DNA of 64,000 nucleotides from an uncultured Chloroflexia bacterium (GTDB lineage: Bacteria > Chloroflexota > Anaerolineae > CG2-30-64-16). Both the position numbers and the translations under genes were made by a program. The notes below the pieces were generated by a model. The model ran no database searches and was not told the origin of the DNA. It worked only from the letters and a program-made list of their open reading frames with translations. The DNA lies in contig CAVZDU010000007.1 of the NCBI GenBank assembly GCA_963774265.1, positions 192,001-256,000 of the forward strand, given 5' to 3'. How positions within the stretch are numbered: the stretch's first letter is position 1; each line of letters begins with the position of its first letter. This document shows, piece by piece, positions 10,355 through 13,682 of this stretch.

Positions 10355-11701
10355 ATGGACCGCATCGTGCAACGATCTCAACTCTTCAATATTTTCCTCG
10401 TCGTTTTCATCGTCATGCTCGGCTTTGGCCTCATCATGCCGCTGATGCCGTTTTTCGCGGCGCAATACGGCGCCAGCTCCTTTGTGGTCGGCCTGCTGGT
10501 GGCAGCGTACGCCGCCGCACAGTTTTTCGGCGCGCCGCTCCTGGGCCGCCTGTCCGATCGTAAAGGCCGCCGGCCCCTCCTGGTTGTCAGCATGACCGGC
10601 ACCTCGTTCGGATTCATCCTGCTGGGTCTGGCCGATCCCTTAGGCAGGGCGCTGGCTTCCTTGTTCGCTGCCGATCCGTCGCCTGCGCTGCAGAACGCCG
10701 TGATCCTGGGTGTGATGTTTCTTTCGCGCATCGTCTGCGGGCTTTTTGGCGGCATGATCACCGTTGCCCAGGCCTACATCGCCGACATCACCGACGAGCG
10801 CACCCGCACCCAGGGGATGGGCATGATCGGCGCTGCGTTTGGTTTAGGTTTTATCGTGGGGCCGGTGATGGGGGGCGTGCTCAGCCAGTGGGGCTTTGCC
10901 GTGCCATCGTTTGCTGCGGCCGGGATGGCGTTGCTCAACCTGGGCACCATTTTGGTCCTGCTGCCGGAATCGCTGACCGAAGCACGCAAGGACGAGCTGG
11001 CCCGGCAAAAGGGGCAAGGGAAGCAATCGCTGATCAACCTGCCGGCCATGATGGGCAAGCTTGGGAGGCCGCGCCTCGGGCCGCTGCTGACCGTTCGCCT
11101 GATCGTCTCGCTGGCCGGGTCGTTGTTCATGGCCCTCTTCACGCTGTGGGCCAAGGATCGCCTGGGGCTGAGCGCGCAGGTCACCTCCTATGTGATGGCC
11201 TACAACGGCCTGTTGTCGATCCTCGCGCAAGTTGGGCTGATTGGCCCGCTGACCAAGCGGTTCCCTGATGCAAATCTCATCTTTTCGTCGATCGTGATCC
11301 TGGCGACGGCCATGTTGGGGTGGGCGCTGACCGCGAACGTGCCAACGCTGTTGGTGGTGATGATCCCAATGGCCCTCTCCACTGGCGTGCTGAACACGGT
11401 CATCGGCAGCGCCACAAGCTGGTCGGTGCCGCCGCAAGAGATGGGCGACGCGCTGGGCACATCCAGCGCGTTCGAGAGCCTCTCGCGCGTGATCGCACCC
11501 TCAGTGGGCGGCTGGCTTCTGGGGGCAGTGGGTACGTGGGTGCCTGGAACTTTGGGTGCGGTCCTGCTGGCCGGCCTCGCGGTCTTCGCCTGGCGCCGGC
11601 TGATCGTCAACCCCGACCCGCCACTGCCCATGCCGGTCATGTTGGGGCAAGCGGCGCCCATGGATGTTCCGGTCTCGCCTCTCGTCGTTGAGCCCGCATA
11701 G
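10355..11701 (+). CDS. MFS transporter (TetA/DHA1-like)
   Basis: About 12 TM helices, motif A GRLSDRKGRRP, AYIADIT, motif C GFIVGPVMGG. Confidence 0.9.
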   Translation: MDRIVQRSQLFNIFLVVFIVMLGFGLIMPLMPFFAAQYGASSFVVGLLVAAYAAAQFFGAPLLGRLSDRKGRRPLLVVSMTGTSFGFILLGLADPLGRALASLFAADPSPALQNAVILGVMFLSRIVCGLFGGMITVAQAYIADITDERTRTQGMGMIGAAFGLGFIVGPVMGGVLSQWGFAVPSFAAAGMALLNLGTILVLLPESLTEARKDELARQKGQGKQSLINLPAMMGKLGRPRLGPLLTVRLIVSLAGSLFMALFTLWAKDRLGLSAQVTSYVMAYNGLLSILAQVGLIGPLTKRFPDANLIFSSIVILATAMLGWALTANVPTLLVVMIPMALSTGVLNTVIGSATSWSVPPQEMGDALGTSSAFESLSRVIAPSVGGWLLGAVGTWVPGTLGAVLLAGLAVFAWRRLIVNPDPPLPMPVMLGQAAPMDVPVSPLVVEPA

Positions 11702-11768
11702 AGCCGAGCGGCCACCGAACTGCATTCGACGAGCGGTCATGGAAGCCTCCCACACATCATGCGAAGGA

Positions 11769-12443
11769 TCAGAAACGATCCGCTGTGGGGTCCCAGAAGT
11801 CACCCCCCAGCCTCAGGCCGGCGAAGATCTGGCGCATCTCATTCGGCCTTGGGCGCCGGGAGTCCGCCTGCAGGCGCGTGGCGTACCACGTCGTCGCCAA
11901 CCCCCACAGCTGATCCATTGTAACCACTGGCCGCGCCGGGGTGTTGTGGGCTGCGCACCAGGCCTGGACCTGTTCTTCCGACCGGAAGAATAGCATGTTG
12001 GCTCAAGTGAAGACGATATCATCCCACCACCTGGCGGCGGGGACGAGGCAGTGAAAGAGCCACTCTGAGGGCCCGGGACCGCTCAGGTCCACCGCCAGAT
12101 GCAGCGGCTCGCCGGATTCCGCGCAGTGGGAGTGGACGATGCCGGGCTTGTGGAGCGCGGCCAGCACCCCGAGCGCATCCCACGCGCAGACACCGAAGTA
12201 CTCGAGTCCACCGGCCTCCACGTGGTGCTGAGTCGGAACGCCTGAGAATGGCGGCGCCATGCGGATCGAGACCCCGTCCGTCTCGAGCACCAGCACCCGC
12301 TGCTCGCGCAGCCGCGCGTACGCGTCGGCCACACTTTCCACGTTCGAATCGACGCGTCGGGCGACCTCCTCCGGAGAAGGTCCCCTCCCGGTCGCCGCGA
12401 AATGGCGGTAGATTTCCAGTTTGACGTGGGTGTCGAAGTCCAT
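11769..12443 (-). CDS. MerB-like (organomercurial lyase fold) protein, probable selenoprotein read through UGA at 12003-12005
   Basis: N-terminal wHTH, MAPPFS, CAWDALG (C-x-x-D), HCAESGEP, then WWDDIVFT-UGA-ANMLFFRSEEQVQAWC. Both ORF-track pieces are in the same frame, giving 224 aa in total. Confidence 0.85.
11970..11993 (-). promoter_or_regulatory. Candidate bacterial SECIS hairpin
   Basis: mRNA after the UGA reads GCCAACAUG-CUAUUCUUCC-GGUC-GGAAGAACAG: 7-bp perfect upper stem plus 2 further pairs, G-starting tetraloop 19 nt after the UGA. Confidence 0.75.
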
Positions 12444-12467: not shown

Positions 12468-13682
12468 TCATAGTTTACCTTCCGGCCGCCGACCTGCGCG
12501 GATGACCGCCACCTGCTCAGCATCAAACGGCGGATCGAACAGCGCGGGCGTCAGGTGGTAGGTGCGGAAGAGATCCGTGATGAAGCGCATACGCTCGGCC
12601 AGATTGCCCCAGTCAGCGACGCGGGCGCTGCGATCCGCGCCTGCCATGACCTGCGCCAGGAATGCAGCCAGTTCGGGACGGTCAATCATTGTCTGGCTGT
12701 CTGGGCTCCTATCAGGGAGGTCCTGGCCGAGCTGCAATACCTCGCCCGTGGGCAGTTTCAGCGTCATCAGGGTCGCAGTGATGACCAGACGTCCGGCCTG
12801 CTGAACCTCCTCTGCCAACTGGTCGCGTGCCTGGAGCAGCGGACCCAGCCGTCGCGCCAGCCTGGCCAGCCAGAAGCGCAGCCGCGACGAGCGGTCGGGG
12901 AGAAGTTCATCAATGAGGTGTTGGCGTAACACGCGCGGATGGATCACCGGCGCATTCATGGCCTCGACGATTTCGCCCTGCAGCCGCGTCTGCTCGTGGA
13001 AGCCGATCTCCAGGTTGGCCAGCAGCAATAGTTGCGCTTTCTGCCTGAGATCATCGGTAGTGATGGCCTGACCATAGTGCTCGAAGGCCTGGGCCAGGTA
13101 TCGCTGGCCGTCCGGGGGATCGCCCGGTCGAAGGCCCTGGCTGAACGCGACCAGACCGTCACGCGTAACGGCCAGCCCGCCGTTCTCGAATAGCGCCAGG
13201 AAGCGCGCGAACTCAGCGCCGATCTCGGCGAATACCTTTACGTTGCCGCGCGCCACCGCGTCACTGGTCCTTTGAAAGGCCGCTACGGGATTCACCGCGT
13301 TCCACACGGCATCCACCGCACCGAAGAAGCTGCGGGGCTGCCGGCCGCGGAGCGCAGCGCTGGCCTCCAGCATGGTGCGGGCGTTCACCTGGGCTGCTGG
13401 CGTCTCGCGGAGCAGCCGTTCCAGCGCAGCAAGCAGATCCTCCCGGCGGATGCTCTGGCCCGCCTGCTTGGACGCCCATGTGGCCACCGTGCACCAGTTT
13501 GCGCCCGCGCCCGTCAACCGCGCCATCGCTGCGGAGAGGTCGTGGTAGGCCTGCGTGATCTGCAGGTTGCGCACGACAGGATCGTCCAATGCTGCGATCC
13601 GGCGGACATCGTCCACCGCCGGGGGCGCGCTCCGGGACCGTTCCATTGCCCCGAGCCGGTCAGTGGAAGGGCCTTCCATCAT
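12468..13682 (-). CDS. Conserved hypothetical protein
   Basis: 404-aa ORF with conserved-looking [14 protein letters not shown] and [15 protein letters not shown] blocks; function not recognised. Confidence 0.7.

Follow-up and report, generated by a model that had tools for sequence, protein, structure and literature searches.

The window analysed here is a stretch of 64,000 nt from an uncultured Chloroflexia bacterium (assembly GCA_963774265.1, contig CAVZDU010000007.1, positions 192,001-256,000). Its positions 11769-12443 very probably constitute a single 224-codon gene for a selenoprotein of the MerB (organomercurial lyase) family, and not two genes, as the comparison of homologous sequences indicates. 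Two open reading frames (ORFs), 12003-12443 and 11769-11996, lie here on the minus strand in one shared frame, and only TGA-GCC-AAC stands between them. ORF coordinates include the stop codon, so that the end of ORF 12003-12443 covers the TGA at 12003-12005; this is followed by GCC AAC and then by an ATG at 11994-11996 (minus strand). When the TGA is read as selenocysteine (Sec, U), translation yields 224 residues, ...WWDDIVFT-U-ANMLFFRSEE..., before a second, terminal TGA is reached. An earlier reading made from the letters of the window alone (the sequence-only reading) had described two in-frame ORFs split by TGA-GCC-AAC, a read-through product of 224 aa and a hairpin UUCUUCC-GGUC-GGAAGAA with its loop 19 nt past the UGA. 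All of this was recovered, the hairpin being located at 11973-11990. The features of the locus are given below; homologous loci with TGA at the position in question are called TGA-forms and those with a cysteine codon Cys-forms.

11769-12443, minus strand: complete gene of a MerB-family selenoprotein (very probable), 224 codons and the terminal stop TGA at 11769-11771; read-through product with 86.8 bits on PF03243 and an AlphaFold2 model with a predicted local distance difference test score (pLDDT) of 96.7.

12003-12005, minus strand: in-frame TGA, predicted selenocysteine 147, equivalent of MerB Cys159 by alignment to Cys159 of 3f2g and to the Cys of MerB2 5c17; TGA in 84 of 84 TGA-forms, Cys in Cys-forms.

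11973-11990, minus strand: core of the predicted selenocysteine insertion sequence (SECIS) hairpin, 7-bp stem UUCUUCC/GGAAGAA with a GGUC loop, encoding F-F-R-S-E-E; motif in 81 of 81 loci.

11970-11993, minus strand: possible 2-bp extension of the stem past a 1x1 mismatch (CU...AG), seen in the fold and weakly supported, its two pairs forming in 53 and 55 of 81 sequences.

12186-12188, minus strand: codon of Cys86, equivalent of MerB Cys96 by alignment; Cys in 84 of 84 TGA-forms.

12177-12179, minus strand: codon of Asp89, equivalent of MerB Asp99 (proton donor) by alignment; Asp in 83 of 84 TGA-forms, Glu in one.

11772-12002, minus strand: part following the Sec codon, residues 148-224, comprising the MerB C-terminal region (Pfam MerB profile positions 88-125) and a conserved tail (...GLxGxFW), under coding constraint.

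The Pfam MerB profile is matched by both halves of the frame: positions 1-80 of its 126 are covered with 49.7 bits and positions 88-125 with 24.8 bits. The read-through protein as a whole reaches 86.8 bits, where the cut-off is 27 and the N-terminal part alone scores 49.7. A sequence search of PDB gave MerB2 5c17 as the best match (E 3.8e-8), followed by MerB entries 3f2g, 3fn8 and 1s6l. In these alignments Cys86 and Asp89 of a C-A-W-D motif fall on MerB Cys96 and Asp99, and the TGA is matched with Cys159, contained in S-F-C-S-H-V-H-F-F of the MerB C160S mutant. The earlier suggestion that CAWD supplies the first two catalytic residues and the UGA the equivalent of Cys159 is borne out by the alignments. 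The AlphaFold2 model (39 sequences; pLDDT 96.7, predicted TM-score 0.93) was compared with PDB using Foldseek: the top 11 matches were all MerB or MerB2, with E values from 7.7e-12 to 4.4e-8 and template modelling (TM) scores of 0.5-0.73, and the first non-MerB match appeared only at E 0.04. Within the 84 TGA-forms Cys86 and UGA147 are invariant and Asp89 is replaced once, by Glu; Sec is preceded by Thr in 83 of them and by Ala in one. The modelled product has the MerB fold, with a predicted Cys86/Asp89/Sec147 active site that matches Cys96/Asp99/Cys159 of MerB.

A protein database search returned 6332 relatives, of which the top 120 were inspected. Nearly all of these are exactly 146 aa long, at 69-79% identity, and are therefore cut at the same place, the TGA. 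The few "full-length" entries show W (P0003) or R (P0009) at the Sec column, or frameshift-like stretches (P0004, P0005). In annotations residues 148-224 are either called as a separate small ORF or dropped by gene callers. At least 504 relatives in species-representative genomes were confirmed by tblastn, and the best 80 loci (L019-L098), which align over residues 1 to about 224 with 61-73% identity, were checked for the TGA. It is present at the Sec column in 80 of 80. According to the submitters' labels these loci come mainly from Verrucomicrobiota (19), Chloroflexota (14), Gemmatimonadota (14), Acidobacteriota (13) and Eisenbacteria (12), with two from Planctomycetota and one each from Bacillota, Pseudomonadota, Myxococcota, Ignavibacteriota and Calditrichota. 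The same TGA was found in L016 (a genome of the same genus, G001, 71% identical), in L017 (a genome of the same family, G012, only 28% identical) and in L099 (a metagenome-assembled genome, MAG, of Solirubrobacteraceae). Together with the window and the best 80 loci these make up the 84 TGA-forms, from about 11 phyla; counts over 81 loci refer to the window and L019-L098.

More distant homologs were analyzed through 150 representatives of clusters formed at 50% identity. Exactly at query position 146 stop 61 of them (36-71% identity), while 42 span the column with Cys, four with W and seven with other residues; 30 are fragments, one is unclassified and the remaining five begin just after the Sec column, at residue 150. 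Alignment of 38 distant full-length proteins placed Cys in the column in 30 cases, and at the nucleotide level 47 loci carry TGT or TGC there; of 77 loci scanned for the column, these and one with TGA were used, while 22 in which it was misplaced and seven in which it was not located were left out. Homologs with either TGA or Cys at a catalytic column amount to the classic Cys/Sec pairing, and this is the outcome of the homolog comparison that the sequence-only reading had put forward as a check. Tryptophan stands at the Sec column in five database proteins (P0003, P0135, P0148, P0153 and P0241); some of these entries may be TGA translated under another code and not a true TGG.

The sequence past the TGA behaves as coding sequence. 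In all 81 loci the frame remains open for 64-110 codons (78 codons in 56 loci), and diversity at the three codon positions beyond the hairpin is 0.23/0.14/0.50 versus 0.21/0.17/0.51 upstream. The genes terminate with TGA in 29 loci, TAG in 28 and TAA in 24. Being common as a terminal stop, TGA is an ordinary stop codon of these organisms, and inside the gene it is conserved at this single place.

The hairpin consists of a 7-bp stem and a 4-nt GGUC loop at 19 nt from the UGA, a motif that all 81 loci carry. Its codons are nearly frozen: Arg is encoded by CGG and Ser by TCG in 80 of 81 loci each, though six codons are available for either, and the two Phe codons are TTC in 81 and 80 loci. Mean diversity at the third codon position is 0.085 in the six hairpin codons, whereas the 30 codons before them average 0.51 and the sequence farther downstream 0.50-0.56. 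Each of the seven core pairs forms in 76-81 of the 81 sequences. Of the cells for all nine pairs counted, 91.9% are paired; sliding the 3′ partners by 1-3 columns lowers this to 45-68%. A compensatory change from C-G to A-U was found in the stem of L088, a change from C-G to U-G in L082 and changes from A-U to G-U in several loci. The stem of L099, CUCCUCC-GGUC-GGAGGAG, carries two double changes from U-A to C-G, by which Phe-Phe becomes Leu-Leu while the partner Glu codons change synonymously from GAA to GAG; L017 retains CUUCC-GGUC-GGAAG. In the 47 TGT/TGC loci, which make a decisive control, no hairpin was detected at that place, the following peptide is M-L-V-F-E-N-E-like and its codons vary freely. 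A hairpin conserved through compensatory change had been named beforehand as a check, and both synonymous-site conservation and compensatory changes were seen.

In the review PMC13188914 a bacterial SECIS (bSECIS) element is defined by a loop of 3-9 nt, a stem of 4-16 bp, a G in the first two loop positions, a distance of 16-37 nt from the UGA and a minimum free energy of -7.5 kcal/mol or lower. The hairpin fits this definition as given there, with borderline energies of -7.5 kcal/mol (18 nt) and -9.5 kcal/mol (36 nt). An Rfam search over positions 11700-12300 found no SECIS or other family, its sole match being a chance miRNA (E 5). Judged by the sequence comparison, the hairpin is not a chance structure and is a predicted SECIS-like element of the SelB type. 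The sequence-only reading had considered a stop at a catalytic site combined with a hairpin unlikely to arise by chance, and recurrence of the TGA in 84 of 84 loci and of the hairpin motif in 81 of 81 agrees with this.

The genome from which the window comes (5.5 Mb, 10 contigs, 84% complete) was searched for the selenocysteine machinery. It contains tRNA-Sec (selC, 73.2 bits, anticodon TCA), SelA (421 bits), the C-terminal wing domain of SelB (70 bits, within a 647-codon frame) and SelD (382 bits, contig C1:464620-465552). All four of selA, selB, selC and selD, whose presence had been proposed as a check, were thus found. The SelD frame has an in-frame TGA of its own, and SelD is itself probably a selenoprotein, the second Sec gene of this genome. 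SelA was also searched for in 40 genomes with TGA-forms (L019-L059 without L055, which belongs to the same MAG as L052) and matched in 38 of them, strongly in 37. In 40 genomes with Cys-forms, representing 40 of the 47 Cys-form loci, 13 matches pass the family cut-off; only four are strong (>400 bits) and the other nine do not exceed 41 bits. We regard the co-occurrence of SelA with the TGA-form as a strong trend, not as a statistic. Two further frames of the window's genome, C3:80356-81336 and C1:694218-695273, resemble pyridine-nucleotide-disulfide oxidoreductases (315 and 242 bits with the MerA model, below the cut-off) and have one in-frame TGA each; both may encode additional selenoproteins, or else be broken or frameshifted.

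These observations can be combined into a scheme. The ribosome would reach UGA147, where the hairpin 19 nt downstream would recruit SelB with Sec-tRNA(Sec); selenocysteine would be inserted and translation would run on to the true stop. It is from the sequence that we infer such SelB-dependent insertion at UGA147. In MerB the Cys pair binds the metal, Asp99 protonates the leaving carbon and the metal-carbon bond is broken. By analogy, Cys86 and Sec147 would bind the metal of an organometallic compound R-M and Asp89 would protonate the carbon, so that the metal-carbon bond is cleaved in a MerB-type protonolysis by Cys86/Asp89/Sec147. What Sec would add is a ligand that is always deprotonated at neutral pH and binds soft metals very tightly, which would be an advantage where the substrate is present only in traces. 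Organomercury is the default guess for the substrate, and other organometal(loid)s are possible. A role of the enzyme as an organometal lyase is plausible on this analogy.

The organomercurial-lyase role is nevertheless the weakest step, and several observations speak against it. Neither a mer operon nor a conserved neighbour was found, the flanks scanned comprising a major facilitator superfamily (MFS) transporter and a 404-aa protein. In the 84%-complete genome the best MerA match, with 325 bits, stays below the cut-off of 454. The very strong Hg-Se bond could hinder release of the product. Because there is no merA and no partner gene, and because the Hg-Se bond is so strong, a classical role in mercury resistance is doubtful.

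The protein could accordingly be a real selenoprotein that is not a lyase, one in which the MerB fold serves for binding, sensing or transfer of a metal or metalloid (e.g. Hg(II), Cu, Se/As species), perhaps via a winged-helix-like N-terminal domain. In addition to the missing merA and partner genes, this agrees with the composition of the active site in relatives: the equivalent of Asp99 is Cys in 10 of 38 Cys-form relatives (motif C-A-W-C), giving a potential three-thiolate site of the kind typical of metal binding. The C-A-W-C sequences hint that part of the wider family may bind metals and not cleave metal-carbon bonds. Copper binding by MerB2 and by D99S MerB is indicated by titles of PDB entries and by Haft & Gwadz (bioRxiv 10.1101/2022.07.06.499078). 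Some 60 N-terminal residues superpose on the winged helices of DtxR and LexA in Foldseek, only at E >0.1, but this domain belongs to the normal MerB fold. The proton-donor Asp, moreover, is kept in 83 of 84 TGA-forms, which argues for chemistry over mere binding. On this evidence we consider a selenoprotein without lyase activity the less likely option, albeit one that retains real weight.

Other explanations concern the TGA itself. The ATG two codons further on would permit a split gene, in which translation stops at the TGA and restarts, and polypeptides of 146 and 75 residues assemble with the Cys159 position left vacant. This ATG (Met150) is present in 79 of 81 loci, the other two having GTG or TTG, likewise start codons, and the C-terminal piece has been called as a protein of its own in the five of 150 cluster representatives that start at residue 150. 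However, Met is conserved there in the Cys-forms too (TCSNML...), where no restart is needed, and splitting would delete the catalytic residue. It would also leave unexplained the synonymous freeze of the hairpin, the compensatory changes and the SelA contrast. We therefore think a split gene very unlikely.

Just as improbable is decoding of the TGA by a near-cognate or suppressor tRNA (Trp, Cys, Arg), or its use as a sense codon in these organisms. The W at the column in P0003 and in four of the 150 representatives and the R in P0009 would fit such decoding; both are taken from protein entries. Against it, this gene itself and 29 of 81 orthologs end with TGA as their normal stop, the taxa belong to phyla that use code 11, the hairpin fits the SelB-type bSECIS model and the Sec machinery co-occurs with the TGA-form. 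That the TGA is a point mutation of TGC or TGG in this genome, in a pseudogene or through a sequencing or assembly error, can practically be dismissed: the assembly does contain at least one likely indel error (in selA), but the same TGA is found in 83 other independent loci from about 11 phyla, with downstream frames that are intact and under purifying selection.

For a selenoprotein gene at 11769-12443 there are also findings that count on the other side. Taken alone, the hairpin is thermodynamically unremarkable, with z from -0.3 to -2.3: the 18-nt fold has z -2.3, with 3 of 200 shuffles as good, the 36-nt fold has z -1.9, and the fold of the 71-nt context (z -0.28) is no better than shuffles. 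Since the fold of the single sequence is at best modestly better than chance, the case for the hairpin rests on the comparison across genomes. Covariation is thin, with two double changes among 81 sequences in addition to L099, because the stem hardly varies. The selA gene (C1:1423808-1424886) is split across two frames in this assembly. The break lies inside a G-homopolymer (...GGTGGGGGAGG...), where frame 0 gives VEGMVGE and the conserved GGGSLPGQ... follows in frame 2; this is probably an indel of long-read assembly rather than gene decay. Such a split, though located outside the window, fits the remark of the sequence-only reading that errors elsewhere in the window are mostly indels. The genomes compared for SelA are mutually related, and their completeness, MAG labels and binning are uncertain, so that 38 of 40 versus 4 of 40 is not a clean statistic. 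Finally, no RNA run is among the sequencing runs listed, and the sole run found, from a soil metagenome (share 0.06), holds relatives and not this organism, 10 of 11 pieces being less than 90% alike. The relatives' reads in it cover the hairpin and TGA stretch at a depth of 18 with no change at the TGA, which is not evidence on this organism.

The gene is stand-alone, patchily distributed and common to many soil phyla. Upstream of it in the window lies a 404-codon ORF (12468-13682, minus strand) that ends 25 nt before the selenoprotein gene, has a weak match to DUF2515 (E 0.007) and may be co-transcribed with it in this genome. On the other side an MFS transporter gene (10355-11701) is convergent with it. 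Both neighbours are absent from the 80 other loci, and across the 81 loci no neighbour is conserved, the commonest neighbour family being found in only six. No other MerB-family gene was detected in the genome. Any match was found in only 3 of 60 genomes of relatives. One Verrucomicrobiota MAG carries two TGA-form copies on different contigs (L052 and L055).

Descent was analyzed with FastTree, a quick method, in an unrooted tree of 179 rows (84 TGA-forms, 65 Cys-form loci and 30 Cys representatives). The tree places 82 TGA-forms in one clade (starred), L017 and L099 standing elsewhere on long branches, and three state changes are needed. The GGUC hairpin of L017 and L099 suggests that the SECIS is older than the main Sec clade. 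Because these two loci carry the same hairpin, a shared ancestral SECIS with later replacements of Sec by Cys may be inferred rather than repeated gains. Within the clade the phylum labels require 30 changes (minimum 10, shuffled mean 50.6). Descent thus appears partly vertical and partly mixed, compatible with horizontal transfer or with mis-binning of MAGs. The sequence of the window groups with sequences from Chloroflexota (labelled Anaerolineales).

The clade occurs in at least several hundred species-level genomes (at least 504 relatives, of which the best 80 were checked for the TGA), and its hosts belong to the most abundant soil phyla. They include dominant aerobic soil taxa: Candidatus Udaeobacter, Acidobacteriota and Gemmatimonadota. 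Mis-annotation is near-universal, as in nearly all of the top 120 clusters the products appear as 146-aa stumps named "organomercurial lyase" or "hypothetical protein". Soil merB surveys and annotation pipelines consequently miscount or truncate the family. The near-invariant 18-nt SECIS TTCTTCCGGTCGGAAGAA following TGA-N12 offers a ready search key. It is conceivable, though speculative and on balance improbable, that stand-alone Sec-MerB proteins act as a demethylase of very high affinity, independent of mer operons, for trace methylmercury or another natural organometal(loid). If this were true, the clade would be a demethylase candidate for the unexplained merB-independent demethylation in uncontaminated soils, with an activity set by selenium availability.

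MerB-like selenoproteins were previously known only as SaoL, in the SAO loci of anaerobes. Haft & Gwadz (bioRxiv 10.1101/2022.07.06.499078) describe SaoL as a MerB-like selenoprotein with a C-U motif, whose Sec162 aligns with MerB Cys159, present in 45 of 52 nine-gene SAO loci and exclusive to anaerobes. The sequence-only reading was right, according to that source, in stating that MerB-related selenoproteins (SaoL) have been reported; the gene described here belongs to a different clade. Both proteins have a fold of the MerB family, with Sec at the MerB Cys159 position beside the equivalents of Cys96 and Asp99, and database entries of both are routinely truncated at the UGA. They differ in several respects. 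The present protein scores 42.4 bits with NF040728, where the cut-off is 140, and over residues 26-118 only; Sec is preceded by Thr (T-U in 83 of 84) and not by Cys as in SaoL; and the gene is not surrounded by a nine-gene SAO neighbourhood. Its hosts are soil Acidobacteriota, Verrucomicrobiota, Chloroflexota, Gemmatimonadota and Eisenbacteria in place of exclusively anaerobic taxa, and it has a C-terminal tail of its own. A search of its own genome for SaoB gave no match, but the control was silent too, so that this negative carries no information. Identity with SaoL is ruled out by the hidden Markov model cut-off, the C-U motif and the neighbourhood, the Sec position being shared.

As far as the available parts of the reviews PMC9312934 and PMC13188914 go, SaoL is the only MerB-like selenoprotein family listed. 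Zhang & Gladyshev 2008, Peng et al. 2016 and deep-Sep 2025 do not mention "MerB" in their main texts, and full-text literature searches combining MerB or organomercurial (alkylmercury) lyase with selenoprotein returned nothing else relevant. A protein search with the C-terminal part gave six candidates, none significant; as shared exact 5-mers were required, this excludes only close full-length entries. No NCBIfam model claims the clade, the scores being below every curated cut-off. The family thus apparently represents a second, separate and uncurated clade of MerB-family selenoproteins.

Classical MerB (plasmid R831b; PDB 3F0P, 3F2G; PF03243) shares the fold (Foldseek E about 2e-11, TM 0.6-0.7) and the same architecture over residues 9-196; its catalytic Cys and Asp recur here, and its third catalytic position has an aligned counterpart. 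The two differ by an identity of only about 23-25%, by Sec in place of Cys159 and by the absence of an equivalent of Cys160 in the present protein, which also lies outside a mer operon and far below the NCBIfam MerB cut-offs (NF009710, 50 versus 193 bits; NF033555, 42.1 versus 200). MerB2 of Bacillus megaterium (5C17) is closest both in sequence (E 3.8e-8) and in fold (E 7.7e-12, TM 0.68/0.73), and the TGA is aligned to its Cys in GGTC-KQIHYF. It has Cys for Sec, however, and Ser (C-A-I-S) where both MerB and the present protein have Asp (C-A-W-D).

The Cys-form members (e.g. P0126, P0133 and P0150; L102-L168) have the same length, the GLxGxFW tail and the motif ...WWDD..(F/Y)T-[C/U]-x-x-M-L, at 30-42% identity. 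They differ in having TGT or TGC and no hairpin, in an LVFENE-like peptide where FFRSEE is found here, in the replacement of the Asp by Cys in 10 of 38, and in their occurrence mostly in genomes without a strong SelA match. With Cys in some members and Sec in others, the enzyme family offers a natural pair for asking what selenium adds to the chemistry of metal-carbon bonds.

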